This document shows positions 3,204-30,854 of a DNA stretch of 64,000 nt, in pieces. The stretch's first letter is position 1. The number at the start of each line of letters is the position of its first letter. The notes under the pieces are model-generated. The model saw only the letters and a program-made list of their open reading frames with translations. It had not been told where the DNA came from and did no database searches. A program made the position numbers and the translations under genes. Origin of the DNA: Candidatus Bathyarchaeia archaeon (GTDB lineage Archaea > Thermoproteota > Bathyarchaeia > Bathyarchaeales > Bathycorpusculaceae); contig JBEKTQ010000007.1 of the NCBI GenBank assembly GCA_049515895.1, positions 96,001 through 160,000 on the forward strand. Direction: 5' to 3'.

Positions 3204-5128
3204 CCTTTGAAAAAGTCTCTTATTTCCTTTGCCAAAACACCTTTTTCGTTCTGAAGCGTTTTCATGCCATTGGTTATCCATGTTGGTAGGAAGCTGCGGC
3301 AGTAGCTCGTGGAGAATCGGTAATCCAAAAAGATAATTGCTCCCATATCATCTAACGTTCTTATCGGTCTTCCTGCGGCCTGAGACGCTTTTTTCATGGC
3401 AGGCAAAATGTACCCGTATTCGCGACCGAACCCTGGAAAACGCTTCTCATAATATGCAATCTGCGCTTTCACCCTCGGCGTCGGCTCCGCATATGGGACA
3501 CCTGCAACCACAACAGAGTTCATTTGGTTGCCCGGGAAATCCACGCCCTCCGAGGTTCTTCCTCCCTGCACACCGAGGAAAACGGCGCCGCCTTTGCTAC
3601 CAAATGCCTTAAAATCTTGGACCATTTTCTCGTTGGCTTTAGAAGTCATATCTCTTCGCTCATGAAAAAGCGGTTTCTGCAATGAATTCTCTAAGCCTTC
3701 GTTAACTAGCGAATTTAAAACTTCAAATGAGGCGGCAAAAACCCCAGTGTTAGTCGGAGTGTTCTCCACCACCTCGTTTATTCGCTCTATCATTGTCTGG
3801 TACATGCCTGGGGTTCTTTTCTCCAAAGATGTGCTGACACCACAGCAAACCGCCGAGAAAATGTGCTCCCTAGGAAAAGGCGACGGCACAATGCATTCAA
3901 CGGTATTCTGAGGTAGTTTAGTTATTCTTTCAAAAGCCCTAAGAGGCTGAAGCGTACCTGACATTATCACGTTGGAGTAAGTCGATGAGAAAACGGGTTC
4001 TGTGATTTTCGACGGGTCCAAGGCAACAATCTGCAGCTTCGCCGTCCTGTTTCTTTCCTTATTCAGGTAGCAGCTTGCAACGTTAATGTAAGAGTCGTCT
4101 CCCAAAGTGTCAATACATTTAAGCAGAAACTCGCTCATCGCATGAATATAAGAACGTGGATTCTTCCCTTCAGCCAACAAGCTCTTCCTGATTGCGCTGC
4201 CTGCATCATGTAGCTGCTCAAAAAACTCGCGTGGATTTTTGATGTTTCCTTGCTTCTCGATGATCTCAATTATGGATTCGGGAGAAATGATTTCTTCTCG
4301 GTGGACATGTTCAATTAGTTTTTCCACTTCAGTTCTAAAGAATAAAGTAAACTCTTCAGCGTCCTTGTTATGGAATCTGTTTGCTTCCAGTTCTGCCTGC
4401 TTCATCACAAAAAGCGAAAGACTTATGCTTGAAATCTCGATGGCTGTTTCAGGTAAGTTGTGGGCTTCATCAACTATCAATATGATTTTCCCAAGTTCAG
4501 TCTCCAAGTTTTTCAGAAAAGCATTTCGGATTGCAGGATCGAAAACGTAGAGGTAGCTTAATGCAATTACTTTGGCGTCTGATAGGGCTGCCTTGACTAA
4601 TTCATAAGGGCAGACTTTTTTTTTCTTGCAAATCCCTATGATTTCCGAGGCCATGTACGGTTTGGTTGCAACTTGTTGCTGAAGCACAAGGTAATCATAT
4701 GTTCGCTCGTCTACGCCTACGTAATATGGGCATCTGCCTTTGGCTTTGAGTAATTCGCAGACTTCCATAAGTGATTTTGAATCAAATGCGCCTCTCTGCG
4801 CGAAAACGTTTAGGCACATCTCGTTGCGTCCGCGGATTGAAACACCTGAAATACGGTGCTTATTGTATATTGCTCGTAACTCTTCTATGACCCTGTCATG
4901 CTGCCGATGAGTTCTAGCAACATAAAGTATCTTCAAGTTCTTCTCAACGGCTACGGGCACGCAAGCGGAAAGAGCCGAAATGGTTTTTCCTAACCCGTTG
5001 CTACCTTCAATCAGAACCGAGCGCCTCTCATGCACAGCATTGTAAACCGTGCTGACGAACTCATCTTGGTGGGGTCGCACGCTGGAGTAAGGAAAGAACG
5101 CGGATACTTGACTAGGCAGCTTAAGCAT
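3194..5128 (-). CDS. xpd: XPD/Rad3/DinG-family ATP-dependent DNA helicase (Fe-S)
   Basis: GSNGLGKT, Fe-S cysteines (MC..CELL..CPYY..CPYE), DEAH, SGTL, SEGVDF, QAAGRPIR. Confidence 0.9.
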   Translation of the reverse strand: MLKLPSQVSAFFPYSSVRPHQDEFVSTVYNAVHERRSVLIEGSNGLGKTISALSACVPVAVEKNLKILYVARTHRQHDRVIEELRAIYNKHRISGVSIRGRNEMCLNVFAQRGAFDSKSLMEVCELLKAKGRCPYYVGVDERTYDYLVLQQQVATKPYMASEIIGICKKKKVCPYELVKAALSDAKVIALSYLYVFDPAIRNAFLKNLETELGKIILIVDEAHNLPETAIEISSISLSLFVMKQAELEANRFHNKDAEEFTLFFRTEVEKLIEHVHREEIISPESIIEIIEKQGNIKNPREFFEQLHDAGSAIRKSLLAEGKNPRSYIHAMSEFLLKCIDTLGDDSYINVASCYLNKERNRTAKLQIVALDPSKITEPVFSSTYSNVIMSGTLQPLRAFERITKLPQNTVECIVPSPFPREHIFSAVCCGVSTSLEKRTPGMYQTMIERINEVVENTPTNTGVFAASFEVLNSLVNEGLENSLQKPLFHERRDMTSKANEKMVQDFKAFGSKGGAVFLGVQGGRTSEGVDFPGNQMNSVVVAGVPYAEPTPRVKAQIAYYEKRFPGFGREYGYILPAMKKASQAAGRPIRTLDDMGAIIFLDYRFSTSYCRSFLPTWITNGMKTLQNEKGVLAKEIRDFFKGQS

Positions 5129-16165: not shown

Positions 16166-16995
16166 TACGGTTTAACCAGGCTTAAGATTTTTTCGTGGAT
16201 TCTCTTGTTGCCCGAAGCTATGAAACTCAAAGTTCGCTTAGGGTCCAATTCAGCATTCAATGGTTGATTATCGGGAGTTGTTATTGTTCCGCCGGCCTCC
16301 TTAATGATGAGAAAGCTCGCCGCGACATCGGTGGTTCTGAGTTTTCCCCGCAGGTCGACAAACGCGTCTGTCGAACCGTCGGCCACGTAACAGAGCTCCA
16401 AAGCGTTGGCACCAAAATGGCGGATATGCTTAGTTTTTCCAATAAGCTCGGTTACTTTTGGCGCGACATCTTTAACTTTGTAAGTATTAAGATCTAACCC
16501 TATCAATGCATCATCCAACGAATCCGTTTTTGATGGCTCTATTTTTTTCCCTTCGCGGAATGCACCTTCGCCCAAAAAAGCGGTGTAAGTTACGTCATGG
16601 AAGAGATCTGCGACCAACCCAGCTTGGACCTCCGCAAGCCAAGCCTTATCGGAAACCGCAATGGAGCAAGCGTAGAATGGCAAACCATGCATGAAATTGG
16701 TGCTTCCATCAATCGGGTCAACAGTAACATGGCACTTTTCAGCTGAGGAGCCGAACTCTCGCACCCCTGACTCTTCACTGATTAGCTTGAACGAAATGTT
16801 GTGTTGGTTTAAGGTGTCAATGATTGCTTTTTCAGCAGCCAAATCCATCGGCTTCACCGCGTCGCCGCCTGCGCCCACACCCAGGTTAGGCTGCGTTTCT
16901 TTGATGGTTTTGAAGCACGGCGCAATGTTTTTTTGCACGTTGTTTTTGCATTCGAGAAGGATTTTTTGCCAGTTTGTTTGTTTCTGCATTTTCAT
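16165..16995 (-). CDS. inositol monophosphatase / fructose-1,6-bisphosphatase family
   Basis: GAGGD, SEESG, VDPIDGSTN, R.FGA.ALELCYVA, DVAAS. Confidence 0.9.
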   Translation of the reverse strand: MKMQKQTNWQKILLECKNNVQKNIAPCFKTIKETQPNLGVGAGGDAVKPMDLAAEKAIIDTLNQHNISFKLISEESGVREFGSSAEKCHVTVDPIDGSTNFMHGLPFYACSIAVSDKAWLAEVQAGLVADLFHDVTYTAFLGEGAFREGKKIEPSKTDSLDDALIGLDLNTYKVKDVAPKVTELIGKTKHIRHFGANALELCYVADGSTDAFVDLRGKLRTTDVAASFLIIKEAGGTITTPDNQPLNAELDPKRTLSFIASGNKRIHEKILSLVKP

Positions 16996-17105
16996 TGATG
17001 GGTCTTCCTGATTGTTGTTAATAGATGGAACGAATTGATAAAGACTATACCCTACATTTCAACGGCTAAAAGTCGGAAGCAGCCGGTTAAACAGTAGTCT
17101 GAATC

Positions 17106-17122
17106 CGAAATGCTTATATTTT
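17106..17122 (+). promoter_or_regulatory. BRE/TATA promoter of the aromatic operon leader
   Basis: CGAAA-TGC-TTATATTTT about 40 nt upstream of the leader ATG. Confidence 0.5.
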
Positions 17123-17159
17123 CTGTTTTATGACTCATTGAGCAAGGTTCGAAGCTTCA

Positions 17160-17243
17160 ATGTCAAATAACGTGTTGAAAAAAGAAAACGTTGCCTCATG
17201 GTTCCAGAGCTTCGACTACTTTTATTATAGTTATTTTCCTTAA
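17160..17243 (+). CDS. putative aromatic-amino-acid leader peptide (27 aa, MSNNVLKKENVASWFQSFDYFYYSYFP)
   Basis: Hand-translated ATG17160-TAA17243; 9 of the last 14 codons are Trp/Phe/Tyr; directly upstream of the aromatic biosynthesis operon. Confidence 0.75.
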   Translation: MSNNVLKKENVASWFQSFDYFYYSYFP

Positions 17244-17281
17244 GCCCAGAACTGGAAATTTTTTTTAGTAAAGTTCTGGGC
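17244..17281 (+). promoter_or_regulatory. attenuator-like hairpin (10-bp stem) enclosing a T8 tract
   Basis: GCCCAGAACT (17244-53) is the perfect reverse complement of AGTTCTGGGC (17272-81); the loop contains T8 (17259-66). Confidence 0.65.
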
Positions 17282-17299
17282 ACAGCATGGGTGTAGCAC

Positions 17300-18547
17300 A
17301 TGGAAAAAACTGGTCCAAACAGAACAATTGTCGTTAAATTTGGTGGTTCTAGCCTAGCGGATCACGAGAGGCTTTTAAAAGCGGTGGTTGCCGTGGTTGA
17401 TGAAGCCAAGAAGGGCACACGGGTCGCTGTCGTGGTATCGGCTATGGGTAAAACGACAGACGTTCTTATGACGACTGCGAAGAACGCTTCCAACGGGAAG
17501 CTGGAGAAGAAAGACCTTGACGACATCCTGTCGATGGGTGAGCGGACCAGCATCAGAATCTTCTCCACAGCGCTTAGAACCAATGGAGCAGAGTCCTGCT
17601 ACTTTGACCCGATCGACAGCAACTGGCCAATAATAACTGATTCAGCCTTCCAAAACGCTAACCCGATCCTCAAGGACTGCGAAAGAAACATCCGAGAATG
17701 TGTTCTGCCACTAGTGGAAAAAGGCACTATTCCCGTCGTGGCAGGTTTCTTGGGCAAAACCAAGGACGGGAAAATCACAACTCTGGGCAGAGGTGGAAGC
17801 GACACAACCGCGTTTGTCCTAGCCGAAGCGCTTGGAGCGGACGAAATTATCTTGGTGACTGACGCAGACGGCATAATGTCAGCAGACCCAAAAATGCTCT
17901 CCAACGTCGAGCGCCTCAAAGAAATCGACGTAAACACGCTGGTGGGACTCGCCGATTCTGGAGCTAAATTCATTCACAGCAAAGCACTAAAGTACAAACC
18001 CAAAAACATTAACGTCCGCGTCATCAACCATTCCCGCGGCAGCCTGTCGGAAGAAGGCACCTTAATCACAGGTGGATTGGCCACGGAACTTGACGCTGAA
18101 ATCGCGCATCCTTTCCCAGTTGCCGAAATCACCGTGATAGGAAACGGCATCTCGGCTAACCCGCAAATCATTCAGGAAATGGTTGAGGAAGCCAAGAGGC
18201 ACTCGCGTCTCTTGGGCATGTCAATGAACACAAACTCCGTAATCATTTATGTTTCAGAAGAGAAGAACTTGGAAGGGCTCTTCAACGACGTCCACAACAT
18301 AACAAAGAGCAACAAGGAAACCATCGCAATGGCCGTCAAAAAAGACCTTGTTTTCATAAAAACAAGCGGCGTCGGCTTAGAAGAGACCCACGGGATCATC
18401 GGAAAGATCAGCGAAGACCTGCGGCTCAGCGGCATAAACATTTCAGGCATACTAACAATAACATCAAGCATTCTTCTCTTTCTCGATTGGAACGAACGGG
18501 AAAAAGCCCTCAAACTAATTAAAAACTCTTTAAGGAGCGCTAAGTAA
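17300..18547 (+). CDS. lysC: aspartate kinase
   Basis: VVKFGGSS, VVSAMGKTTD, TTLGRGGSDTTA, ADP; C-terminal ACT-like region. Confidence 0.92.
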   Translation: MEKTGPNRTIVVKFGGSSLADHERLLKAVVAVVDEAKKGTRVAVVVSAMGKTTDVLMTTAKNASNGKLEKKDLDDILSMGERTSIRIFSTALRTNGAESCYFDPIDSNWPIITDSAFQNANPILKDCERNIRECVLPLVEKGTIPVVAGFLGKTKDGKITTLGRGGSDTTAFVLAEALGADEIILVTDADGIMSADPKMLSNVERLKEIDVNTLVGLADSGAKFIHSKALKYKPKNINVRVINHSRGSLSEEGTLITGGLATELDAEIAHPFPVAEITVIGNGISANPQIIQEMVEEAKRHSRLLGMSMNTNSVIIYVSEEKNLEGLFNDVHNITKSNKETIAMAVKKDLVFIKTSGVGLEETHGIIGKISEDLRLSGINISGILTITSSILLFLDWNEREKALKLIKNSLRSAK

Positions 18548-18556
18548 GGTGAAAAT

Positions 18557-19348
18557 ATGAACCAAGGAAAAACCCGAAGACTAAAAAGAATAATGCAGCA
18601 AGACAACCGCACAGTAATTGTTCCCATGGACCACGGCGTAACAGTCGGACCCATCCAGGGCTTAACCAACATGCAACAAATAATCGACCAGCTTGTCAAA
18701 GGCGGGGTTGATGCCGTGCTTGTCCACAAAGGCATCGCTAAACACACTGACGCTGGAAATGTAGGATTAATCGTAATGCTGTCTGGTATGTCAAACCTCA
18801 GCCCAAACGTAAACGGCAAAGTCCAAGTCTGCAGCGTCAAAGAAGCTATACGTTTAGGGGCAGATGCGGTTTCAGTACATGTTAACATCGGCGCGCAAGA
18901 CGAGGATAAAATGATTCAAAATCTTGGTAGCGTAGCTGACGAATGTGACGTTTACGGGATGCCATTGCTTGCGATGATGTATCCACGGGGACCCAAAATA
19001 CAGAATGAACATGCAGCCGACGTGGTTGCTCACGCCGCACGCATAGGTGCTGAACTTGGTGCGGACATTATCAAAGCAAACTTCACAGGAAACATAGAAA
19101 CCTTCAAAACCGTAGTAGAAAGCTGCCCCGTTCCGCTGGTGATCGCAGGAGGACCAAAATGCAAAACCTCCGAGGAAGTTCTGCAAACCACACGCGACGC
19201 CATTTCAGCCGGAGCAGCAGGGCTTTCCATCGGGCGCAACGTTTTCCAGCACGAAAATCCAACATTAATTGTTAAAGCGCTTTCAGCTATCGTTCATGGC
19301 AACGTAAGCGTGGAAGAAGCGCTGAAAATCGTCGGTGAAAAAGCTTGA
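18557..19348 (+). CDS. aroA': 2-amino-3,7-dideoxy-D-threo-hept-6-ulosonate (ADH) synthase, DhnA-type aldolase
   Basis: VPMDHG, MMYPRG, AELGADIIK, AGGPK, IGRNVFQ; adjacent to aroB'. Confidence 0.88.
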   Translation: MNQGKTRRLKRIMQQDNRTVIVPMDHGVTVGPIQGLTNMQQIIDQLVKGGVDAVLVHKGIAKHTDAGNVGLIVMLSGMSNLSPNVNGKVQVCSVKEAIRLGADAVSVHVNIGAQDEDKMIQNLGSVADECDVYGMPLLAMMYPRGPKIQNEHAADVVAHAARIGAELGADIIKANFTGNIETFKTVVESCPVPLVIAGGPKCKTSEEVLQTTRDAISAGAAGLSIGRNVFQHENPTLIVKALSAIVHGNVSVEEALKIVGEKA

Positions 19349-20388
19349 AGGAACTGTGGGTAGAAATTGAACCTGCGGCTTCACCGCAAGAAAAAGAAAA
19401 CTTGCTTGGCACCGCATATGAAAATGCAGATGTGGTCCTAGAAGGTACCCAAGCGAGCACCCGTAACGGCAAACTTGACGTGACATTTCTCGCCGAGCTT
19501 TCCGAGAAGAAGATTTCCCAAGCCAAAAATGAAGGCAGAAAAACCGCGGCCAAATTCAACATAACTGGGAAAGAAGACGAAAACCGCGCTGCTAAAGCGG
19601 CTGAACTGGGGGTTGATTATATAATCATCAACACGTTGGACTGGAGGGTCATTCCTCTGGAGAACTTAATTGCGAAGGCGCATGGAGGCAAAAGCAAGCT
19701 TATCGCTGAAGTTGCGACGGCACAGGACGCCAAAGTGGTTCTTGAGGCGTTGGAGCTGGGAACAGACGGTGTTCTGCTTAAAACTTCAAACCCAAATGAG
19801 CTTGCCAAAACTGTGAAGCTCGTCAAAGGGCAAATGCCTAAGGTAGCGTTGACAATAGCTAAGGTTCTGTCTATACAGCCCATCGGTACAGGAGCAAGGG
19901 TTTGCGTTGACACTGTTGATTTGATGGTTCCAGGCGAAGGAATGCTTGTCGGCTGCCAATCTGCAGGGTTCTTTTTGGTCGAGGCTGAGGTGAACGAGAA
20001 CCCATATGTGCAATCTCGACCTTTCCGAGTAAACGCTGGACCAGCATCACACTACACTTTAACGTCGCTTCAGAGTACTCGGTACCTCTCCGAACTGAAG
20101 GCTGGAGACGAAGTCTTAATCATAAACAGGGAAGGAAAAGTAAGAATAACGAACGTAGGAAGATCAAAAATCGAGTTCCGACCGCTCATCTTAATTGAGG
20201 CGCAAGCGGACGAAACAAAAATCAAAGCAATACTGCAAAACGCAGAAACCATCCGTCTCGTCACGCCAAAAGCCTCCAAACCCGTGACGGAACTCAAAGT
20301 AAGCGACGAGGTCTTGGTGCATTTGGCTGCAAAAGGGGGCAGGCACTTCGGCGTTTCCGTGCCTGAAGAAACGGTGATTGAAAGGTGA
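19345..20388 (+). CDS. aroB': 3-dehydroquinate synthase II (archaeal)
   Basis: WRVIPLENLIA, RVCVDT, RPFRVNAG, ILQNAETIRL, GRHFG. Confidence 0.95.
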   Translation: MKELWVEIEPAASPQEKENLLGTAYENADVVLEGTQASTRNGKLDVTFLAELSEKKISQAKNEGRKTAAKFNITGKEDENRAAKAAELGVDYIIINTLDWRVIPLENLIAKAHGGKSKLIAEVATAQDAKVVLEALELGTDGVLLKTSNPNELAKTVKLVKGQMPKVALTIAKVLSIQPIGTGARVCVDTVDLMVPGEGMLVGCQSAGFFLVEAEVNENPYVQSRPFRVNAGPASHYTLTSLQSTRYLSELKAGDEVLIINREGKVRITNVGRSKIEFRPLILIEAQADETKIKAILQNAETIRLVTPKASKPVTELKVSDEVLVHLAAKGGRHFGVSVPEETVIER

Positions 20389-21068
20389 CTTTGAGAATCT
20401 GCGTTTCAATCCTACCAGAAAATAGTCTTCAAGCCCTAACGCTCATCAGGAAGGCGGAAAAAGCCAAAGCAGACCTCATCGAAGTCAGGTTGGATCGTCT
20501 TGAAACGACCACACACTTGAGGGAACTTGTCCAGAGCACAAAAATCCCCCTAATAGCAACGCACAAACTGACGAGCGAAAAAGGTTTTTTCTCCGGGACA
20601 GAGGCCCAAAGGCAACAGAGCCTTCTGAACGCAGCCGAAAGTGGTTTCGAATACGTTGACGTTGACGTGTCAAGCCCAAACCGCCAAGAAACAATCGATA
20701 AACTCAAACAGTTGGGAGTTAAACCAATCGTTTCCCACCACAAATTCGATGGCACATTAAGCCGTTCCGCTATGGAGAAGGTTCTGGAGCAGGAAATCTT
20801 GTGCGGCGCCTGCATATGCAAAATCGTTGCAACCGCCAAGAAAATCGAGGATAACCTGACGGTACTCAATTTTGTCGCTTCCCATTCAAGTAAGGCTAAA
20901 CTTGTCTGTTTCTGCATGGGCGAAGTAGGTAAAGTTTCAAGGATTCTTTCACCGATGTTCGGCGCCTTCTTCACTTTTGCTTCGCTTGAACAGGGCAGCG
21001 AAACCGCGAAAGGGCAAATCTCCATAGGCGAAATGAAGGCTGCTTTCGACCTCCTAGGAGCGCCTTAA
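20385..21068 (+). CDS. aroD: type I 3-dehydroquinate dehydratase
   Basis: IEVRLD, SHH.F, CKIV, FCMGEVGKVSR, AKGQ. Confidence 0.92.
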   Translation: MTLRICVSILPENSLQALTLIRKAEKAKADLIEVRLDRLETTTHLRELVQSTKIPLIATHKLTSEKGFFSGTEAQRQQSLLNAAESGFEYVDVDVSSPNRQETIDKLKQLGVKPIVSHHKFDGTLSRSAMEKVLEQEILCGACICKIVATAKKIEDNLTVLNFVASHSSKAKLVCFCMGEVGKVSRILSPMFGAFFTFASLEQGSETAKGQISIGEMKAAFDLLGAP

Positions 21069-21069
21069 G

Positions 21070-21936
21070 ATGGCGGTTTCAGGAAAAACTAAAGTTTTCG
21101 GAGTAATCGGCGACCCTGTAGAGCACAGTCTAAGCCCGGTCATTCAGAACGCGGCGCTTGCAGCCTCGAAATTAGACTGCACATTCTTAGCCTTTAAAGT
21201 AAAATCCACAGCGGTCGGGAAAGCAATGGACGGTATGCGAGCGTTTGGCATTCAAGGGCTTAACGTTACAATGCCCCATAAAACCGCGGTTCTCAACTTT
21301 CTTGACGAAGTTCACCAGACCGCCAGGGCGCTAAAGGCAGTTAACACGGTAAAGAACGAGAGCGACAAACTCTTAGGCTTCAACACTGACGGCACCGGTG
21401 CAATGTCTGCTTTGAGAGAAAACGGCGTTGAGCCAAAAGGCAAAAAAGTAATGTTGCTTGGAGCAGGTGGTGCTGCAAGAGCTATAGCCTTCGTTCTCGC
21501 GGATCAGGTGGATGAGCTTTCAATTTTGAATCGGACAATTCAGCCAGCCGCGGAGTTAGCAGATTTAATAAAGGAAAGGTTCAACAGCAAAGTTGTTGCG
21601 TACGCTCTTTCCCCGTTAACGCTTAAGGCAAATCTAGCTGATGCTGACCTGCTGATTAACGCCACTTCAATCGGAATGAAATCGAACGCCAATAAAACCC
21701 TGATAGTCCCAAAATGGCTCAAGCCTGACTTGGCTGTGATGGACATAGTGTATGACCCGATAGAGACTAAACTAGCGAAAAATGCGAGGGCTGCGGGCGC
21801 CAAAGTGGTCAGTGGGGTTGAAATGCTGATTTATCAGGGCGCTGCGTCGTTTGAAATCTGGACTGGCAGGAAGGCGCCAATTGAAGTTATGAGGAAAGCA
21901 GCGCTTAATCACTTGCAGAAGGTGCAGAAGAGTTGA
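21070..21936 (+). CDS. aroE: shikimate dehydrogenase
   Basis: HSLSP, NVTMPHK, AVNT, NTDG, GAGGAARA, MLIYQG. Confidence 0.96.
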   Translation: MAVSGKTKVFGVIGDPVEHSLSPVIQNAALAASKLDCTFLAFKVKSTAVGKAMDGMRAFGIQGLNVTMPHKTAVLNFLDEVHQTARALKAVNTVKNESDKLLGFNTDGTGAMSALRENGVEPKGKKVMLLGAGGAARAIAFVLADQVDELSILNRTIQPAAELADLIKERFNSKVVAYALSPLTLKANLADADLLINATSIGMKSNANKTLIVPKWLKPDLAVMDIVYDPIETKLAKNARAAGAKVVSGVEMLIYQGAASFEIWTGRKAPIEVMRKAALNHLQKVQKS

Positions 21937-22802
21937 CGGGGCAAGCTTCAGCTGTAGCACATGGCGCGGCGACGATTGTTAATGCAATGGCGCTCGGCAA
22001 AGGCGCCGCTTTCGGAGTTGACTTGTTCACGAAAGCGAAAGTGGAATTGACTGAAGAGCCAACAGTTGTCAAGGCAGAGATAGCTTCTGACCCGAAAGAA
22101 AGCAACGTTCTGGTGAAGAAAACCGTTGAGCGGGTTCTCCAGCGTTTCAAGATGGAAAAGAGATTCGGCGCTAAAGTTAAAACTTGGTCAAACATCCCCA
22201 TCGCCAAAGGGCTCAAAAGTAGCAGTGCAGCAGCAAACGCGGTCGCCCTGGCAACCACGGCGGCGCTGGGGAAAACGCTGGATGACTTGGAAATTATCAA
22301 CTTAGGTGTAGACTCCGCTTTCGACGCGAAAGTGACGGTTACTGGCGCTTTTGACGATGCATGCGCATCATATTTAGGCGGGATAATTGTCACTGATAAC
22401 TTAGAACGGAAAATCGTGGGGCGGTTGGCGCTACCCGAAGATCTAGTTGTGCTTTTTCTTGTTCCTCCCCAAAAAGCTTATTCTGCTGACTCAAACGTTG
22501 AAAGGCTGAGAACTGTGAAGCCGCTTGTTCAAGTTGCTTACGAGAAGGTTTTAGGGGGTAGGTTCTGGGAGGCTTTGACGCTTAATGGTTTAATTTACTC
22601 CTCTGTCTCTGGGTATGATCCCTCGATCGCGATTGACGCGTTGGCGGCTGGAGCAGTGGCGGCTGGGCTTTGCGGTAAAGGACCGGCAGTTACGGCAGTC
22701 ACAACTAAAGACAAGGTTGATTCGGTGAAGGCTGCATTTCAAAAATTCGACGGCATAGTCTTGCAAGCCCGCTTCAACAAGGAAAAGGCAACGGTGATTT
22801 AG
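21933..22802 (+). CDS. aroK: archaeal GHMP-family shikimate kinase
   Basis: GAATIVNA, IPIAKGLKSSSAA, TVTGAFDDA. Confidence 0.95.
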   Translation: MTGQASAVAHGAATIVNAMALGKGAAFGVDLFTKAKVELTEEPTVVKAEIASDPKESNVLVKKTVERVLQRFKMEKRFGAKVKTWSNIPIAKGLKSSSAAANAVALATTAALGKTLDDLEIINLGVDSAFDAKVTVTGAFDDACASYLGGIIVTDNLERKIVGRLALPEDLVVLFLVPPQKAYSADSNVERLRTVKPLVQVAYEKVLGGRFWEALTLNGLIYSSVSGYDPSIAIDALAAGAVAAGLCGKGPAVTAVTTKDKVDSVKAAFQKFDGIVLQARFNKEKATVI

Positions 22803-22804
22803 CA

Positions 22805-24109
22805 ATGGCGGATGTAATCGTTAAAAAGTCTGAAAAATTAAGCGGCGAAGTATGCGCTCCCCCTTCAAAATCTTACACTCAGCGAATGCTCATCGCAGCG
22901 TCTCTCTCAAACGGGACTGGAAAAGTTTCAAATCCGCTTCTTTCCGAAGATACAGAAGCCACTTTGCGCGCGATAACCGCATTAGGTGCAGAAACGAGTT
23001 TTGAGGAAAACTGCTGGGTCATTAAAGGCGCTGTGCCTATTCAAAACGCGAAAGCACCAATTGATTGCGGAGAATCCGGAGCTACAATACGTTTCATGAT
23101 ACCTGTGGCTGCCCTGGCAAGTGACCCCTCAATCCTGATCTTCCGTGGGTCTCTTGACCGCAGACCCATCGAACCTTTGATTAAAAGCCTAGACGACTTG
23201 GGCGCAAAGGTTCACTCGAAAAAATTCGGCGACAAAGACGCCGTGGTTGTTGAAGGCGGGGGAATTCTTGGAGGACAAACCTCTATTTCAGGTGGTGTAA
23301 GTTCGCAGTTTATTTCGGGGTTGCTTTTTGCGTGCCCGATGGCTAAGGTTGAAACTGAAATAGTCTTCGAATCCCCATTGGAGTCCGCTGACTATGTTAA
23401 GATGACTTTGGATGTGCTTTCGAAGCATGGAATCAGAGTGGACGTTTATGGCAATTTCGAACGCATCTTAATCCCAGCCAACCAAACCTTCAAAACCATT
23501 GACTGCCGGGTGCCTGGCGACTTTTCTTCAGCCGCATTTCTTTTTGCAGCCGCAGCTGTCACCAAGTCGAAAGTGCAGGTAAACGATCTTGATTACGGGA
23601 GCGTTCAAGGCGACAAAGCAATTCTGAGCATCCTAAAACAGATGGGTGTAGCCGGCAAAGTGTGTGAAAACAGCGTTGAAATAGACGGCACGGGTAGCTC
23701 GCTTGAGCCATTAAATCTTGATGCAAAAAACATCCCTGACCTTGTCCCGGTATGCGCAGCTTTGGCATGCTTCGCAAATGGGACCTCGAAAATAACAGGC
23801 GCGCAAAGGCTCAGGCTCAAGGAATCAGATAGGCTGCAATCCCTCTATAGTGAGTTCACAAAGATGGGGGCAGAAATTGAAGTAGATTCGAACAGTCTAA
23901 CCGTGAGGGGCACCTCTGCTTTGCACGGCGCCACAATTGACCCTCATAACGACCATCGTATAGCGATGGCTTGCGCGATTGCAGCTCTATGCGCGGAAAA
24001 CCAAACTATTATTCAAAATGCCCAGTGTGTCAGAAAGTCTTATCCACAGTTCTTCACTCATCTGAAACAGTTAGGAGCGGAAATTGTTGGCGGGAAATTC
24101 GACGGGTAA
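22805..24109 (+). CDS. aroA: 3-phosphoshikimate 1-carboxyvinyltransferase (EPSP synthase)
   Basis: PPSKSYTQR, ESGATIRF, SSQFISG, RLKESDRL, DHRIAMA, KSYP. Confidence 0.96.
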   Translation: MADVIVKKSEKLSGEVCAPPSKSYTQRMLIAASLSNGTGKVSNPLLSEDTEATLRAITALGAETSFEENCWVIKGAVPIQNAKAPIDCGESGATIRFMIPVAALASDPSILIFRGSLDRRPIEPLIKSLDDLGAKVHSKKFGDKDAVVVEGGGILGGQTSISGGVSSQFISGLLFACPMAKVETEIVFESPLESADYVKMTLDVLSKHGIRVDVYGNFERILIPANQTFKTIDCRVPGDFSSAAFLFAAAAVTKSKVQVNDLDYGSVQGDKAILSILKQMGVAGKVCENSVEIDGTGSSLEPLNLDAKNIPDLVPVCAALACFANGTSKITGAQRLRLKESDRLQSLYSEFTKMGAEIEVDSNSLTVRGTSALHGATIDPHNDHRIAMACAIAALCAENQTIIQNAQCVRKSYPQFFTHLKQLGAEIVGGKFDG

Positions 24110-25202
24110 AGAATTCACAGTTACCACTTTCGGCGAAAGCCACGGCAAAGTCGTCGGCGTCATAGTGGACGGTTGCCCTGCAGGTTTGCCTCTTTCTGAA
24201 GCAGACATTCAAGCGGAGCTGGACAGACGCGTACCAGCAGATACCCGAATCGTTTCTGCAAGAATCGAAAGAGACGTGCCCAAAATTCTTTCGGGCGTTT
24301 TCAACTCGGTTACCACTGGCGCTCCAATAGCCGTGACGGTTGAGAACAAGGATGTTGACTCCGCGGATTATGAGGCAATTAAAAATCTGCCAAGACCTGG
24401 GCATGCAGACTACCCCGCAAGCGTTAGGTACGGCGGCTTTAACGATTACCGCGGAGGCGGACGCTTCAGCGGTAGAGTCACTGTGGCGTTAATAATGGCC
24501 GGAGCCATAGCGAAAAAACTTCTGAGCCGTTTCGACGGGGACGTTTTAGCCTACACAAGAACCATAGGCAAAATCAGAAGCGACAAGAAGTTTAGCACTG
24601 AAGAAATCCGAAAGAACCGCTACGTGGCCTCTTCTAGATGCCCCGATTTGGCATGCGCAGGAAGAATGGAGGAAGCCATTGTTGACGCGCGAAAAGAGGG
24701 CGAAAGCCTCGGCGGCGTAGTTGAATGCCTTGCTCTGAACATACCAGTGGGGGTTGGGGACCCAATGTTTGATTCGCTCGACGCCGAGTTAGCCAAGGCA
24801 CTGTTTAACGTTCCTGCAGTCAAGGCAGTTGAATTCGGATTGGGCTTCGAACTCATCAAGATGAAAGGCTCAGAAAGCAATGACGCCTACGTCATGCAAA
24901 ACGGGAAAGTTGCTACTTCAACCGATAACATGGGCGGAATCTTAGGCGGCATATCCAACGGCATGCCAATCATCATGCGGGTAGCAATTAAACCGACGCC
25001 TTCCATCGGCCTAGAGCAGAAAACCGTTAACCTGACCACTATGGAAGATGCATCTCTCACAGTTAAGGGCAGACATGATCCATGTGTCGTTCCTAAAGCC
25101 GTGCCAGCCGTAGAAGCCGCAGTAGCCATAACGCTAGCTGACCACATGATTCGTTCTGGCTTCATACCGAAAGTCTTGGAGAGGAAAAAAATTGTTGGAT
25201 GA
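24084..25202 (+). CDS. aroC: chorismate synthase
   Basis: FGESHG, PRPGHAD, GGGRFSGR, KPTPSI, GRHDPC. Confidence 0.97.
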   Translation: MLAGNSTGKEFTVTTFGESHGKVVGVIVDGCPAGLPLSEADIQAELDRRVPADTRIVSARIERDVPKILSGVFNSVTTGAPIAVTVENKDVDSADYEAIKNLPRPGHADYPASVRYGGFNDYRGGGRFSGRVTVALIMAGAIAKKLLSRFDGDVLAYTRTIGKIRSDKKFSTEEIRKNRYVASSRCPDLACAGRMEEAIVDARKEGESLGGVVECLALNIPVGVGDPMFDSLDAELAKALFNVPAVKAVEFGLGFELIKMKGSESNDAYVMQNGKVATSTDNMGGILGGISNGMPIIMRVAIKPTPSIGLEQKTVNLTTMEDASLTVKGRHDPCVVPKAVPAVEAAVAITLADHMIRSGFIPKVLERKKIVG

Positions 25203-25455
25203 ACTCGAACTGTACAGAAAACAGGTTGATCAAATTGACGATTTGATTTTGAAAGCGCTAACTGAAAGAGTCAAGATATGCATGGCCATCGGTTTAGTAA
25301 AGAAAAAACGGGGCATCCCAATAAAAGACCTCTCCAGAGAAAACGACGTTTACAGAAAAGTAAAAGACAATTCTGCCGAATTCGGCTTAGATTCACAGAA
25401 GCTTGAGGCAATCTACCGCGAAATAGTTAATATGTGCAGTGCAGTTCAAGAGTAA
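25192..25455 (+). CDS. chorismate mutase (AroQ class)
   Basis: LELYRKQVDQID..IL..L.ER, IG..K, D.SRE, C-terminal Q. Confidence 0.88.
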   Translation: MLDELELYRKQVDQIDDLILKALTERVKICMAIGLVKKKRGIPIKDLSRENDVYRKVKDNSAEFGLDSQKLEAIYREIVNMCSAVQE

Positions 25456-25484
25456 GAAATAATCTAAAAGGAAAGTTCAAGGTA

Positions 25485-26564
25485 ATGCTCTACGAAATAA
25501 ACGAGAAAGCCATAAGACTCGAAAATCAAGGAAAGAAAATAATCCGCTTAAACCTAGGTGACCCTGACTTGGCTACGCCACCAGAAATTGTTGAGGCTGC
25601 GTACGCCGCGATGAAGGCTGGTAAAACAAAGTATTCTTCTGCTTACGGCGAGGAAAAACTAAGGCAGAAACTCGCTAAAATTCACGGAGTCAAAGCAGAA
25701 AATGTTGTTATTACTCCGGGTTCAAAATGGGGCGTCTTCGCCACTTTGTACCTGGCTATGAAGGCTAGAGGTAACATCATCATACCCACGCCTTACTGGA
25801 CAGCTTACGATTTAATGGCTAAAAGTCTCGGTGCCCAAACAAGACTGCTCCGGACCGAAATGGAAGACGGCTGGAAAGTTGATTTGGGCAAGCTCGAAAC
25901 TATGATTGACAAAGACACTCGGATGATAATACTCAACAACCCGAATAATCCGACAAGCAAAGTGATGGATTCCGAGACTTTAGACGGTATAGTGGAAATA
26001 GCCAACAAGAAAGGCGTAACCATACTCTCTGACGAAGTTTACGGTCCAATCAGTTTCATAAAGACAAAAAGCATCCTTGAATACGACGGCAACCACAATC
26101 ACATTCTTTCAAACGGGTTCTCAAAAATGTTCACCATGACGGGCTGGCGAATCGGCTATATCATCGCGAATAAGGCGCTCGTGGACAACATAACAAAGCT
26201 AAACCAAATTACCATAAACAACGTCCCAGTCTTCATACAAGAAGCAGCTCTAAAAGGGCTTGAAATGCAAAAGAACCTGACAAAAACCATTGAAAAAGAA
26301 TATGAAGAAAGGGCAAAGATAGCAAGCAAAACTTTGGCGAAAGCCGGCTTTTCCTTCACCGAACCCGAAGCACCATTCTACGTGTTCCCAAAGCTTAAAG
26401 GCTTAGACTCAGAAAAATTCACCCTAGACCTGCTTGACAAAGGCGTTGCAGTGGCTCCCGGAACATCCTTCGGTGACTACAGAGAGCACTTCCGCATCTC
26501 TTTGACAGCTCCCCGAGACGAAATAAAAATAGGGTTGGATAAAATCAGCGAGGCGCTCAAATGA
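25485..26564 (+). CDS. PLP-dependent class I/II aminotransferase (probably aromatic)
   Basis: NLGDPD, NNPNNPT, SDEVY, GFSKMFTMTGWRIGY; operon context. Confidence 0.9.
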   Translation: MLYEINEKAIRLENQGKKIIRLNLGDPDLATPPEIVEAAYAAMKAGKTKYSSAYGEEKLRQKLAKIHGVKAENVVITPGSKWGVFATLYLAMKARGNIIIPTPYWTAYDLMAKSLGAQTRLLRTEMEDGWKVDLGKLETMIDKDTRMIILNNPNNPTSKVMDSETLDGIVEIANKKGVTILSDEVYGPISFIKTKSILEYDGNHNHILSNGFSKMFTMTGWRIGYIIANKALVDNITKLNQITINNVPVFIQEAALKGLEMQKNLTKTIEKEYEERAKIASKTLAKAGFSFTEPEAPFYVFPKLKGLDSEKFTLDLLDKGVAVAPGTSFGDYREHFRISLTAPRDEIKIGLDKISEALK

Positions 26565-27436
26565 AAACCGCGGTTCTTGGCGCGGGAAAAATGGGTGTTT
26601 GGTTCGCAAAGTTTTGTAAGGAGAAAGGGGACAGCGTAATCCTCTCAGACAGGAAAGAGGAAAAGCTGTCAAAACTCGGAAAAGAGTTAGGTGTCGAAAC
26701 TACCACTGACTTCTCGAAAGCGGTTGAAGACGCAGACAGAATCATGATTTGCGTTTCACTAAGCAGCTTCGAAGAAGTGGTAAAAAAAATCGGCTCCAGC
26801 GTTCGCGACGGGCAAGCGGTTATGGATATCTGCTCAATCAAGGAGTACCCAGTTAAGGTTATGCATGATTATATCAAGCACGGCTTGGTGTTGGGTACTC
26901 ACCCCGTTTTTGGCCCAGGCAGCAAAGGCGTAAAACACAAAGCCTACGTTCTCACCCCCACAAATGCCAAGGAGGAGAAGTATGCCGAAGACTTCAAAGA
27001 GTGGCTGGAGAGTGAAGAAGCCCACGTTTTCGTAATGACACCCCAGAAACACGACCAACTCATGTCCGTCGTCCTAGGACTACCGCATTTCCTCGGATTA
27101 GTCGCTTGCGAAACCCTTCTTGATCAAAAGGCATTCACTGAAACTAAGCAATTGGCGGGGACGACTTACCGCATGCTTTTCACTTTGGCGGAAGCAACCG
27201 CGCTGGAAACTCCTGACCTTTACGCTAATTTGCAGATGAAGCTGCCTGGAATGGGAAAAATCGAAGACCTCTATATCTCCAAGGCTCAGGAATGGCTGGA
27301 TTTGATCAAGCAGAAGAATCCTCAGGCAATCATCGACAGGATGGAGCAACTTAAAGCTAAACTGCTGAAGGTTGATCCCGACTTCTCAGAATCATATGAA
27401 GTCATGTACAGAATGCTTGAAGCCACGGAGAAGTAA
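26561..27436 (+). CDS. tyrA: prephenate/arogenate dehydrogenase
   Basis: GAGKMG, DICSIK, THPVFGP, HDQLMS..LGLPH. Confidence 0.93.
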   Translation: MKTAVLGAGKMGVWFAKFCKEKGDSVILSDRKEEKLSKLGKELGVETTTDFSKAVEDADRIMICVSLSSFEEVVKKIGSSVRDGQAVMDICSIKEYPVKVMHDYIKHGLVLGTHPVFGPGSKGVKHKAYVLTPTNAKEEKYAEDFKEWLESEEAHVFVMTPQKHDQLMSVVLGLPHFLGLVACETLLDQKAFTETKQLAGTTYRMLFTLAEATALETPDLYANLQMKLPGMGKIEDLYISKAQEWLDLIKQKNPQAIIDRMEQLKAKLLKVDPDFSESYEVMYRMLEATEK

Positions 27437-27445
27437 CGAAAACAG

Positions 27446-28066
27446 ATGCCCAAATCATTAGTCGTGAATTGTTCTCTAAAATCAAAAAACGAAGCTTTAG
27501 TTGAAGCCATCAGAGAATTCAGCGACTGCGACGTTCTCCAGTTCAGTGATATCCATGAGGGCTACCGCGTCAAAGAGGAAGTTGATGCCGTCGTCATAAG
27601 CGGTTCTGCAGCTAGAATAGTTAACTCTTCCGACAGACGTCTCTTTGAAGGAGTTGTCAATCTGATAAGAACCTGCGACTTGCCCACGTTGGGTATCTGC
27701 TTTGGGCATCAATTGCTCTGTTGGGCGTTCGGGGCAAAAGTTGGATCACTTGCTCAACCTGTTCTGGATCGTTTTGAGTCGGTTCGGGTGGTCGACGTCG
27801 ACGGAATATTCTCTGGGTTTAGCGAAAACCTGATGGTGCCGCTGTCAGAAAACCATTACGATTACGTCCTAAAAGAAAACTTGTGCGAGGCGGGCTTTCT
27901 TTTGCTCGCGGATTCCGTCTCATGCGAAGTAGAAGCCGTTAGGCATAAAAGCAAGCCACTTTACGGCGTTCAATTTCATCCCGAACGTATAAAAGTAAAG
28001 GGCGAAACGCATTCTGGGGGTCACAAAGTTATAAAGAACTTTTACCAAAACGCGATTAGGCGATAG
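27446..28066 (+). CDS. class I glutamine amidotransferase-like protein
   Basis: ISGS, LGICFGHQ, GVQFHPE (Cys-His-Glu triad). Confidence 0.88.
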   Translation: MPKSLVVNCSLKSKNEALVEAIREFSDCDVLQFSDIHEGYRVKEEVDAVVISGSAARIVNSSDRRLFEGVVNLIRTCDLPTLGICFGHQLLCWAFGAKVGSLAQPVLDRFESVRVVDVDGIFSGFSENLMVPLSENHYDYVLKENLCEAGFLLLADSVSCEVEAVRHKSKPLYGVQFHPERIKVKGETHSGGHKVIKNFYQNAIRR

Positions 28067-28158: not shown

Positions 28159-28527
28159 GTGGTTTCTGTGGAATTTAAGAAGGCTCCGGCTGAACTTGTT
28201 GAATTCATCAGAGAAAAAATGAAGGACGTGAACTGCGACTATCGCCAAATGTTTGGGTACCCCGCATACTTCATTAACGGCAACATGTTCGCGGGACTTT
28301 TTGGCGACAAATTGCTTTTGAGGCTTTCAGACGTTGACTTCGCGGAAACCCTGAAAATCCACGGGGAAGTTAAGGTTTTTGAGCCCCTGCCGGGAAGGGC
28401 GATGAAAGGCTATGTTGCTCTCCCAAAATCAGTTTATTCAGATGACACTGAGTTCGAGAAGCTGCTTAACAAATCTGTAAAATACGTCTCTTCGTTGCCC
28501 CAAAAAATATCGAAAGCCAAAAAGTAA
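28159..28527 (+). CDS. TfoX/Sxy N-terminal domain protein
   Basis: RQMFGYPAYFINGNMFAG, MKGYV, YVSSLP.K. Confidence 0.82.
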   Translation: MVSVEFKKAPAELVEFIREKMKDVNCDYRQMFGYPAYFINGNMFAGLFGDKLLLRLSDVDFAETLKIHGEVKVFEPLPGRAMKGYVALPKSVYSDDTEFEKLLNKSVKYVSSLPQKISKAKK

Positions 28528-28530
28528 GTG

Positions 28531-29343
28531 TCAATTCGCTTTTGAGTATGAACCTAAGACTTTGACAAAATCAACGTACTTCTTGAGAGCCTTCAAGGCT
28601 TCCGAACATTGTTTCTCACATCGGTGCCCCTCGAAATCCAAGTAGAAGTTGTATTCCCAAGGCGTTTGCTTGGTAGGTCTTGACTCGATTTTTGTTAGGT
28701 TTATGCCTCTTTTGGCAAATTCACCCAGCGCGTTGTAAAGCGACCCTGGCTTGTGGGCTGCTGAGAAGATTATGCTTGTTTTGTCTTTGCCCGTTGGTGC
28801 TGAATCGCTGGTGGATAGAACAAAGAACCGTGTGTAGTTTTCGGAGTTGTCAGCAATATCTTCAGCGAGAATGTGCATGCCATAGAGGTCGGCTGCTCTT
28901 TTGCTGGCGATTGCGGCGGCGTTTATCAAACCTTTTTCTTTGATCATTTTGACGCTGCCTGCCGTGTCATAGGTCGGTATTAGTTCGCGACCGAATTCCT
29001 CCAGGAAACTTCTGCATTGCCCAAGCGCCTGCGGATGCGAATAGACAACTTTGATGTTTTCTAATGCTGCGCCGGGGTTCGCGACTAAGCAATGCTCGAT
29101 TTTCACCACGACTTCCCCGCAAACTTTCAAGTCATAGCGCAGAAACAGGTCGTAGTTCTGAGGTACACTGCCTTCTAAACTATTTTCGACGGGTACGATG
29201 CCGTGCTGGGTTTCTTGAGTGCATACGCTGTCGAAAACGTCTTTGAAGTCGCGGCAAGGTTTAACCTGTGTTTCTGCTCCGAAGAACTGGTAGACTGCGC
29301 TTTCGCTGTAGGCGCCTCGTTCGCCTTGAAATGCTACTTTCAC
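28531..29343 (-). CDS. pheA: prephenate dehydratase (with ACT domain)
   Basis: GERGAYSE, PVENSLEG, SHPQALGQC, NYTRF, LTKIESRP. Confidence 0.96.
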   Translation of the reverse strand: MKVAFQGERGAYSESAVYQFFGAETQVKPCRDFKDVFDSVCTQETQHGIVPVENSLEGSVPQNYDLFLRYDLKVCGEVVVKIEHCLVANPGAALENIKVVYSHPQALGQCRSFLEEFGRELIPTYDTAGSVKMIKEKGLINAAAIASKRAADLYGMHILAEDIADNSENYTRFFVLSTSDSAPTGKDKTSIIFSAAHKPGSLYNALGEFAKRGINLTKIESRPTKQTPWEYNFYLDFEGHRCEKQCSEALKALKKYVDFVKVLGSYSKAN

Positions 29344-30854
29344 TGTTTGTTTCCCCGATTACGATTCTTAAGCAAAAGCTTGTTTATACCGTTTATCATT
29401 GCTTCGACACTAGCCATTACGATGTCCTCTCTTGCTGCCCGTGCGGACACGAGGTTGCCTTTCTCATCTTCCACTTTTATGATGACTTCTGCAACAGCGT
29501 TTGAGCCGCCTGTGATTGCTTCAAGCCGATATTCTCTCAGTCTGATTTTTTCTTGGTTACTGATTAACCTCTGGATTGCCTTCAGAACCGCGTCAACTGG
29601 ACCAACACCCGTCTCAGCAGCAACGTACTCTTTCCCATCCAGAGTCAACCGCACCGAAGCCGTAGGGATAACCTTGATGCCTGTTACAACTGCCATATCG
29701 CATAAATCAACGATTTTCTCCTCTCCGACAACCTCACCCAAAACAGCTGAAGTTAACGCCAACAAATCAGCGTCCGTCACCATCTTGCCTTTATCACCAA
29801 GTTCCTTGACGCGCTGGACAATTTCTTTCAGTTGCTCTTCACTCGGGTGGATGCCGACTTCTTCCAACTCCGCCTTGATGCCGCGTGTCCCCGCCAGTTT
29901 CCCAGCGACAAGTTTTCTAGTGCGACCAACCAGAGCAGGATCTATCGGCTCAAAGGTTAGAGGCTTCTCCGCAACTCCGCGTGTGTGGATGCCTGATTCG
30001 TGCGCGAACGCGTTTTCGCCCACAAGTGCCTTGTTAGCCTGCACAGCGATACCAGTTAATGAAGAAACCATTCTAGAGGTGCTGTAAAGCAGTCGGCTGT
30101 TTATTCCTGTCTTGTACTTGTAAAGAACATGCAAAGCCATAACCACTTCTTCCAGCGAAGCGTTACCTGCCCGCTCGCCTAACCCGTTGACGGCAACGTG
30201 CACTTGTACCGCGCCCGCTTCCACCGCAGCCAACGAGTTTGCAACTGCCAACCCGAAATCATCATGGCAATGAATGCTTATGGGCACGCTAACTACTGAT
30301 TTTATTTCTTCCACAAATTTTATTGTTGATTTTGGAATCATGATGCCGACGGTGTCAGGCAGATTTAAGCTGTCCATACCTGCATCCTGGGCTGCTTGAC
30401 AGATTTTTTTGAGGAAAGGCATTTCGGAGCGCGTGGCGTCCATAGGTGAAAACTCACATTTTACACCATGCTTCTTAACGTACTCAATCGACTCGATTGC
30501 TGAAGCTAACACTTGCTCATGCGTCAAATTGACCGCGTACTTCATCTGCACCTCAGAAGTGGGAATGAAAACGTGAATTAAATCGACGTTGCAGTCTAAC
30601 GCCGCGTCAATGTCACCCTTTGTCGCCCGGGAAAGCGCACAGATTTCAGAGTTCAAGCCCAGTTTGACAATTTCTTTAACGACTTTTCTTTCGCCTTCGG
30701 AGGAACTTGGAAAGCCCGCTTCGATAACGTCAACGCCCAGCTTGCCTAGTTGGCGTGCAATCTCAATTTTGTCTTCAGGGGTTAAGGAAACCCCGGGGGT
30801 TTGTTCGCCGTCTCTTAGGGTAGTGTCTAAAATTCGAATGTATTTACTCGTCAT
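29340..30854 (-). CDS. leuA: 2-isopropylmalate synthase (LeuA/CimA family)
   Basis: [30 protein letters not shown]-terminal regulatory domain with GVGPVDA. Confidence 0.88.

Follow-up and report, generated by a model that had tools for sequence, protein, structure and literature searches.

An aromatic-rich leader peptide with a stop-abutting hairpin: a candidate ribosome-sensed regulator of an aromatic amino acid operon in Bathyarchaeia

Could an archaeal operon be controlled by the progress of a ribosome along a short leader peptide? The question is raised by a locus in a Candidatus Bathyarchaeia archaeon whose genome comprises 3.18 Mb in 53 contigs, with a G+C content of 44.1%. The window analyzed here is a stretch of 64,000 nucleotides (nt) of this genome (contig C7, positions 96001-160000), and positions below are those of the window. 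On its forward strand, a short open reading frame (ORF) of 27 codons plus a TAA stop codon (17160-17243; ATG at 17160, TAA at 17241-17243) lies between a promoter with a B recognition element (BRE) and TATA box and a 12-gene aromatic amino acid operon headed by an aspartate kinase (AK) gene. The encoded peptide, MSNNVLKKENVASWFQSFDYFYYSYFP, has one Trp, four Phe and four Tyr in its last 14 codons. The first base after the stop codon opens a perfect 10-bp stem, in which the 5' arm GCCCAGAACT (17244-17253, here segment C, with the GC-rich lower half GCCCAG) is joined to the 3' arm AGTTCTGGGC (17272-17281, segment D) by an 18-nt loop (17254-17271) consisting of an A-rich 5' part and a run of eight T (T8, 17259-17266). 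An earlier note on this DNA had described the ORF, the stem with T8 in its loop, and their position between promoter and operon. All of this was borne out by the sequence itself, by the conservation of hairpin and promoter, and by Pfam assignment of the genes. From the comparisons below we conclude that the element is probably a ribosome-sensed leader that regulates the operon, an archaeal counterpart of the bacterial leader-peptide attenuators that is built differently.

Conservation and coding potential of the leader

The single sequence proves nothing, because the folding energy of the leader taken alone is unremarkable (z = -1.57; 14 of 200 shuffled sequences fold as well) and nine upstream ORFs (uORFs) of the same genome, namely the leader and eight other small ORFs (sORFs), have at least four Tyr in their tails. 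The case therefore rests on comparison. The comparison of orthologous leaders that the earlier note had proposed was strongly positive. The same layout (promoter, aromatic-tailed short ORF, stop codon abutting a strong hairpin, Shine-Dalgarno (SD) motif and AK start) was present ahead of the orthologous AK gene in 71 of the 72 loci that could be used from the window's own order, which represent 4 families and 20 genera (13 genera of f1, 5 of f7 and 1 each of f6 and f11); the single failure is a locus truncated by a contig end. In the other orders of the class, the layout was found in 12 of 35 usable loci and added 6 families: f14 (3/3 loci), f30 (3/3), f27 (2/2), f36 (2/2), f19 (1/1) and f32 (1/1). 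The leader was absent from the loci of f26 (0/6), f34 (0/6), f17 (0/7), f35 (0/2) and f15 (0/1), and the one locus of f16 was ambiguous. In total, the architecture is shared by 83 leaders, which represent at least 10 families of the class, the genomes being samples of their groups and relatives among them not being independent. AK starts were placed from tblastn alignments and are a few codons off in some loci. Two loci of the window's own genus, G007 (fragmented) and L005 (truncated), were excluded from the counts.

Within the genus, the 34 usable leaders all carry the same series of elements, including GGTTCGAAGC before the ATG, a stop codon in contact with the stem and a loop in which a T run comes after an A run, and AK precedes aroA' in 30 of 30 fetched loci. 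The promoter block CCGAAAYGCTTATATTTT is close to invariant among these leaders, and related TATA blocks occur in other clades. In the window, the BRE/TATA-like promoter spans 17105-17122 on the forward strand (CCGAAA at 17105-17110 and TTATAT at 17114-17119; CCGAAA plus TGCTTATATTTT); by the usual archaeal spacing between TATA box and start, transcription is predicted to begin at about 17140-17146. Between clades, the hairpin sequences are unrelated (GCCCAG.., GGAGAAACCG.., AGCTTCGAAACC.., GCCAGCCGAG..) and the architecture is retained. Thus, in the f1 genera g29, g37, g53 and g54 and in f11, whose AK is only 47-50% identical, an unrelated hairpin (GGAGAAACCG.. paired with ..CGGTTTCTCC) follows leader peptides such as MDIPIATPKPFGFTFSGYWYTFNY, and the layout is unchanged.

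Leader presence tracks the AK-headed operon: at aroA' loci without a preceding AK, an aromatic sORF was found in 0 of 18 (best case, 3 aromatics of 12). A pattern scan of named genomes gave 12 true leaders among the 120 matches listed, the rest being chance palindromes in bacteria, and a scan of metagenomes gave 10 among the 118 listed, which were mostly chance palindromes. The leader-bearing named genomes that were examined are all metagenome-assembled genomes of 'Candidatus Bathyarchaeota' or 'Bathyarchaeia', two of them labelled Bathy6.

Several features suggest that the ORF is translated. The distance from its ATG to the block of Ser-Phe-Asp/Glu codons (segment B, AGCTTCGAC, 17208-17216 in the window, where the codons are Ser-Phe-Asp) is 42, 45 or 48 nt in 48/48 leaders. 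Indel steps inside the ORF are thus of three bases in all 48, unlike those in the adjacent non-coding spacer between the 5' untranslated region (UTR) block and the ATG, which measures 1, 2, 3, 4, 5, 8, 9 or 18 nt. In 71/71 own-order leaders, the frame that starts at the ATG has its stop codon -3 to +5 nt from where pairing of the stem begins, the distance being 0 in 37 of them, and ORF lengths are 22-29 codons. Aromatic residues account for 63% of the last 12 codons (Phe 27%, Tyr 35%, Trp 2%) and 7% of the rest; the last 12 residues hold 6-10 aromatics in all 83 leaders, and codon positions -2 to -8 are aromatic at 61-92%. The preponderance of Tyr over Phe, and of both over Trp, fits an operon ending in prephenate dehydrogenase. 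In its N-terminal half the peptide is free to vary in sequence and length; across deep branches, conservation is confined to the aromatic composition of the tail, which takes the form ..SF[DE]Y.FYY.. within the genus. Taken together, the three-base spacing, the placement of the stop codon at the stem and the aromatic composition argue that the ORF is a translated leader rich in codons for the end products of the operon, as the earlier note had supposed. A weak SD sequence (AGGT) precedes the leader ATG, the 16S rRNA of the genome ending in GGATCACCTCCT. By-eye reading of the alignment spoke against read-through or frameshifting at the leader stop codon, since the relatives have an in-frame stop soon after it.

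Conserved helices and oligo-T signals

RNAalifold analysis of 36 aligned leaders returned two helices only. Helix 1 joins segment A (GGTTCGAAGCT, 17146-17156), which lies in the 5' UTR and overlaps the weak SD sequence, to segment B within the ORF; helix 2 is the hairpin. On this consensus structure, 97.2% of cells are paired, and the pairing falls to 41-45% when the partners are slid by one column. Five pairs show double changes, a number reached by none of 500 shuffles, although some of these changes stem from two poorly aligned f7 rows. In helix 1 (columns 19-25 with 79-85), 98.4% of cells are paired, and a path from C-G through U-G to U-A can be followed in leaders L031 and L026. This helix contains the 8-bp pairing of TCGAAGCT (17149-17156) with the Ser-Phe-Asp codons, AGCTTCGA (17208-17215), that the earlier note had pointed out, and that pairing is conserved with a compensatory change. 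In helix 2, an A-U pair is replaced by G-C in L163, every variant of the 5' arm within the genus is compatible through G-U pairing, and the upper stem co-changes across genera (AAC/GTT, GCG/CGT, AGCTA/TAGCT). Because the arm variants are G-U compatible, the element is most simply read as RNA of this strand. The 3' arm itself hardly varies: TTCTGGGC (17274-17281) is invariant in 36/36 aligned leaders and GTTCTGGGC is nearly so within the genus, the sole exception being GCTCTGGGC in L163, at AK identities down to 70%. Including its flank, the hairpin has a folding energy of -10 to -29 kcal/mol among the 83 leaders. A search of Rfam with 16900-17500 of the window gave only a chance match (E = 4.4), and eight related loci gave no match.

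Two further pairings proposed in the earlier note did not hold up. In the window, CCAGAGCTT (17204-17212) is able to pair with AAGTTCTGG (17271-17279) with one G-U pair, and the note had extended this alternative partner of the 3' arm by 17215-17218. It is absent from the conserved helices and requires CCAGAG, which was seen by eye in 6 of the 34 same-genus leaders; since an all-against-all comparison of columns within the genus turned up no additional conserved helix above 5 bp, we regard it as lineage-specific. The pairing with 17252-17257 was not conserved either. Thus, of the ribosome-mediated attenuator originally envisaged, the aromatic leader, its placement behind a promoter and the adjoining hairpin with its oligo-T stood, and these two alternative pairings did not.

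A side observation concerns the word GCTTCGAA of helix 1 in the window's genus, which recurs within the otherwise unrelated hairpin of f14 (L360-L362; AGCTTCGAAACC.. paired with ..GGTTTCGAAGCT). This could be chance or common origin.

The oligo-T content of the hairpin has to be seen against the termination signals of the genome. The first 40 nt that follow long ORFs contain runs of at least five T at a density of 6.5-6.9 per kb, versus 1.3 per kb inside the ORFs, so that the usual archaeal oligo-T termination signal applies in this genome; runs of eight or more T number 314 in 3.18 Mb. The 40 nt before gene-end T runs have a minimum free energy of -4.2 kcal/mol, compared with -3.7 kcal/mol for shuffled sequences, which means that hairpins are lacking there, and only 4% of gene-end T runs have an A run just upstream. 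Because gene-end T runs are not preceded by hairpins, the leader hairpin is a specialized structure rather than a component of ordinary terminators. Inside the hairpin, 62/83 leaders have a T run of at least four and 39/83 have one of at least five; an A run followed by a T run occurs inside it in 40/83, and its 3' half is more T-rich than its 5' half in 79/83 (36% vs 16%). In the window and its genus the T run is in the loop, and no U-tract follows the stem on its 3' side.

How ribosome position might act on the operon

The mechanism to which we give a tentative preference, at rather less than even confidence, has the hairpin conceal a U-rich terminator tract, which a ribosome reaching the stop codon would expose. 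The Tyr, Phe and Trp codons would couple the progress of the ribosome to the supply of charged aromatic tRNAs, and the position of the ribosome would set whether the stop-abutting hairpin is folded. The hairpin would be an anti-terminator mask, its U-rich 3' half (loop and 3' arm) carrying the ordinary oligo-U termination signal. When Tyr or Phe is scarce, the leading ribosome would come to a halt at codons -2 to -14, immediately short of the stem, and hold up the ribosomes behind it; the hairpin would then fold, the U-rich tract would be paired or enclosed, and RNA polymerase would continue into AK. When aromatic tRNAs are plentiful, the ribosome would proceed to the stop codon and so unwind the GC-rich foot of the stem, whereupon its weaker upper half would collapse. 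The U-tract unmasked behind the polymerase would lead to early termination, most likely helped by FttA/aCPSF1, a cleavage factor that binds U-tracts. Translation of the ORF, stalling, the 'on' state of the hairpin, the role of FttA and any termination at all are steps that we infer. The embedded T run, its A-run partner and the A-rich 5' and U-rich 3' halves fit a masking role, and the stop codon abutting the GC-rich half of the stem is in favour of a hairpin that is opened by the ribosome. The earlier note had suggested this inverted logic, in which a stalled ribosome permits the stem and a ribosome at the stop codon exposes the U-tract, and the comparative anatomy appears to agree with it best. 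PMC11616081 describes steric exclusion involving FttA and the ribosome.

A number of points weigh against this preferred mechanism. Hairpin masking cannot prevent intrinsic termination at T8, because the T run is transcribed before the 3' arm; for the same reason, masking needs a later, factor-assisted step on the emerged RNA, for which FttA/aCPSF1 is the obvious candidate. A ribosome stalled at codons -2 to -8 (or as far as -14) should leave the stem intact, which would favour the mechanism, but this expectation depends on the bacterial rule that RNA is unwound about 11 nt beyond the P site; footprint as well as unwinding distances are borrowed here from bacteria. A closely trailing ribosome is generally expected, from bacterial work, to suppress termination. 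No T run of at least four lies between stop codon and AK in 16 of the 83 leaders, including 4 of the 34 from the same genus. In some clades a U run directly follows the stem in the manner of a bacterial terminator, and the f7 leaders have strong complementarity between 5' UTR and 5' arm, in the manner of a classical antiterminator; both suit the opposite logic taken up below. Finally, the leader element is unique in its own genome: a scan of 8,936 sORF stop codons gave 555 stop-abutting hairpins (at or below -13 kcal/mol) and no other convincing amino-acid-biased leader, and the trp operon (G000:C8:68050-74287) lacks a Trp-rich leader. The genes of that operon (trpE, G, D, C, B and A) were assigned by position and two Pfam matches, and it is preceded by a 108-aa ORF that we take to be CutA-like.

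It is also possible, although we consider it unlikely, that the leader works in the classical sense: the hairpin, as a terminator or processing signal, would turn the operon off, and a ribosome slowed on the aromatic codons would prevent it from forming. Such a ribosome would sit on the foot of the stem or would cover segment B, so that the 5' UTR segment, a degenerate copy of the 3' arm, could pair with the 5' arm; once the ribosome had finished and left, helix 1 and the hairpin would form and expression would be shut off. In favour of this, the complementarity of 5' UTR and 5' arm in family f7 amounts to -11 to -22 kcal/mol in 11/11 leaders and each value was reached by at most 19 of 200 shuffles, but this pairing forms without a ribosome too. 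The complementarity is moderate in g26, g27, g32, g33 and g36, and nascent folding with a ribosome on segment B raises the pairing from 0.6-4.5 to 4-8 bp in g26, g27, g32 and g33. It is weak in the window's own genus, at -8.4 vs -6.5 kcal/mol with a median of 34 of 200 shuffles; g23, g43, the GGAGAAACC type and f11 lack it, and in the other orders it is inconsistent. Apparent partners of the 5' arm in L367 and L362 lie upstream of the TATA box and hence outside the RNA. As a universal feature, then, the antiterminator formed by 5' UTR and 5' arm was rejected, being present only in f7 and some f1 genera. Segment A of family f1 does resemble the 3' arm (GUUCGAGGC vs GUUCUGGGC), and the stem is followed by three to six U in f14 (3/3), f11 (2/2), the GGAGAAACC type and part of f7. 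However, the window's genus has its T run in the loop with no U-tract after the stem, the terminators of the genome do not depend on hairpins, and a ribosome at the best-conserved aromatic positions (-2 to -7) would leave segment B uncovered.

Two other explanations do without termination or without ribosome sensing. The hairpin, under the control of the ribosome, might act on translation initiation of AK or on cleavage or stability of the mRNA, with distal effects by polarity, an output that we judge improbable. An SD-like motif stands 0-9 nt 3' of the hairpin in 70/83 leaders of all clades (in the window GGGTG, 17289-17293, 7 nt 3' of the hairpin), the layout is like that of the bacterial ermC and secM-secA leaders, and the leaders without a T run of at least four indicate that a U-tract is not universal. 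Nevertheless, the SD motif and start codon of AK lie outside the stem, which ends 15-24 nt before the start codon and thus beyond the core ribosome-binding site. The predicted accessibility of the 25 nt after the hairpin is little affected by a ribosome, being 0.46 as compared with 0.51 for a ribosome at the stop codon and 0.51 for one at codon -8. Pairing between the aromatic flank and the AK ribosome-binding site is below that of shuffled sequences (11.8 pairs vs 13.4 expected), and in 49/71 leaders, half or more of the 30 shuffles matched or exceeded the pairing of the actual sequence. Both constrained folding and flank pairing thus led us to reject sequestration of this site. Very improbable, in our judgment, is a protein-centred explanation, in which a regulatory protein binds the hairpin, either in the RNA or in the DNA as an inverted repeat, or the ORF encodes an aromatic micro-protein, and the codon bias is a by-product. 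The invariance of the 3' arm would suit such a site, and a loose S-x-G/D-Y-aromatic pattern recurs among the peptides. On the other hand, the hairpin keeps its placement relative to the stop codon between clades in which its sequence is unrelated, the G-U compatibility of the arm variants speaks for RNA of this strand, and a protein operator gives no reason why, in 83 leaders, an in-frame ORF should end at its edge. The peptide, of which only the aromatic composition of the tail is kept and the N-terminal half is unconserved, had no match in a Pfam search.

Relation to known leaders, and the operon and its surroundings

The closest bacterial parallels are the trpL, pheL-pheA and hisL attenuators, in which a short ORF rich in codons for the end product lies between the promoter and the first biosynthetic gene, and conserved helices overlap or follow it. 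The present leader differs in being archaeal, in lacking a U-tract 3' of the stem in the window's genus, and in having no conserved antiterminator helix longer than 5 bp in a genome whose terminators are hairpin-independent. Its stop codon is placed against the hairpin and not ahead of segment 2, and the regulatory codons reach the stop. Because neither the stem with U-tract nor a conserved antiterminator was found in the window, we do not file it as a member of the trp/pheA type. In the tnaC-tnaA leader of Escherichia coli, too, a ribosome at or near the leader stop codon decides the access of a termination factor to the nascent RNA downstream; there, the ribosome that has stalled keeps Rho from acting, and a catabolic operon is thereby induced by free Trp. 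The sign proposed here is the opposite, charged tRNAs would be sensed through runs of codons, and the factor would be FttA/aCPSF1 and not Rho. The ermC and secM-secA leaders share the stall of a ribosome near the 3' end of the leader ORF beside a hairpin just before the next SD, but in the present leader the downstream SD is not sequestered, and the stall signal would be hungry codons and not a drug or an arrest peptide. According to the available part of bioRxiv 10.1101/834739, mycobacteria possess leaderless Cys-rich uORFs upstream of operons for that amino acid, which were proposed to be attenuators. These resemble our leader as short ORFs rich in a single amino acid without a textbook pair of terminator and antiterminator; they differ in being bacterial and leaderless, and no conserved stop-abutting hairpin is apparent in that part of the text.

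No leader-peptide attenuator of an archaeon was found in full-text searches, which largely miss subscription journals. According to a 2021 Nature Communications paper (PMC8448881) and a 2014 transcriptome paper (PMC4247193), archaea have no known mechanism of attenuation or antitermination, and a 2026 review of termination signals has no word beginning with 'attenuat'. It is possible, if doubtful, that this element represents the first leader-peptide attenuation in Archaea, class-wide in Bathyarchaeia, with a logic unused in bacteria in which the hairpin is the anti-terminator and the ribosome at the stop codon is the trigger. In any case, the 83 natural variants provide a concrete and widely conserved test case for functional coupling of ribosome and RNA polymerase in archaea. 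They differ in having the T run in the loop, after the stem or not at all, and in the presence of a 5' UTR mimic of the 3' arm. The element also bears on the regulation of termination by oligo-U and FttA and on the control of amino acid synthesis in uncultured Bathyarchaeia.

The operon occupies 17300-28066 on the forward strand, as defined by its ORFs and Pfam matches, and begins with the ATG of AK at 17300. It consists of AK, aroA', aroB', aroD, aroE, a GHMP shikimate kinase and EPSP synthase, followed by aroC, chorismate mutase, an aminotransferase, prephenate dehydrogenase and GATase. Pfam identified AK as an amino acid kinase (aspartate kinase), aroA' as an archaeal aldolase, aroB' as DHQ synthase II (DHQS-II) and aroC as chorismate synthase. 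The 12 ORFs are tightly packed, with overlaps or gaps of at most 10 nt. From this content, the operon makes chorismate via the aspartate-semialdehyde route and proceeds to tyrosine. In f7, f6 and genus g32 (L152, L153, L194-L203, L179 and L206), an aspartate-semialdehyde dehydrogenase gene is placed between AK and aroA', so that the operon there encodes both reactions supplying aspartate semialdehyde to the archaeal shikimate route. In the window, a prephenate dehydratase gene with an ACT domain (28531-29343, reverse strand) is convergent to the operon, and the Phe branch is therefore outside the control of the leader. This gene is directly downstream of one for a LeuA/HMGL-like synthase (29340-30854, reverse strand). 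Between operon and dehydratase, a 122-aa ORF with a TfoX N-terminal domain (28159-28527, forward strand) follows the operon after a gap of 92 nt.

Other upstream regions deserve mention. In f26 and f34 (L346-L351, L368-L374) and in f17 and f35 (L353-L359, L378 and L379), which belong to orders without the aromatic leader, the AK-headed operon has different conserved blocks within about 200 nt upstream of the AK start. They resemble ..TGGGTGAYC.TCTTTTCGGTGATGGCGTTTAC.. and ..GGAGGCTTTACGTTTTCTGGAGGTCTTGTGTTTAC.., with a doubled SD-like word followed by TTTAC, have no Rfam match and might regulate the same pathway in cis by other means. Among the small ORFs of the window's own genome, three that are rich in Thr and end in TIP (G000:C19, about 25426-25497 and 36793-37288; G000:C34, about 4365-4827) looked like thr leaders and were rejected, as they are antisense to the C-terminal membrane anchors of Pro/Thr-rich repeat proteins. 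Outside the window on the same contig (G000:C7:73154-73285, forward strand), a small ORF encodes a peptide of Gly-Met repeats (..MPPMPPGGMGGGMGGMGGMGGMGGMPY) and is located 135 nt upstream of a 245-aa ORF.

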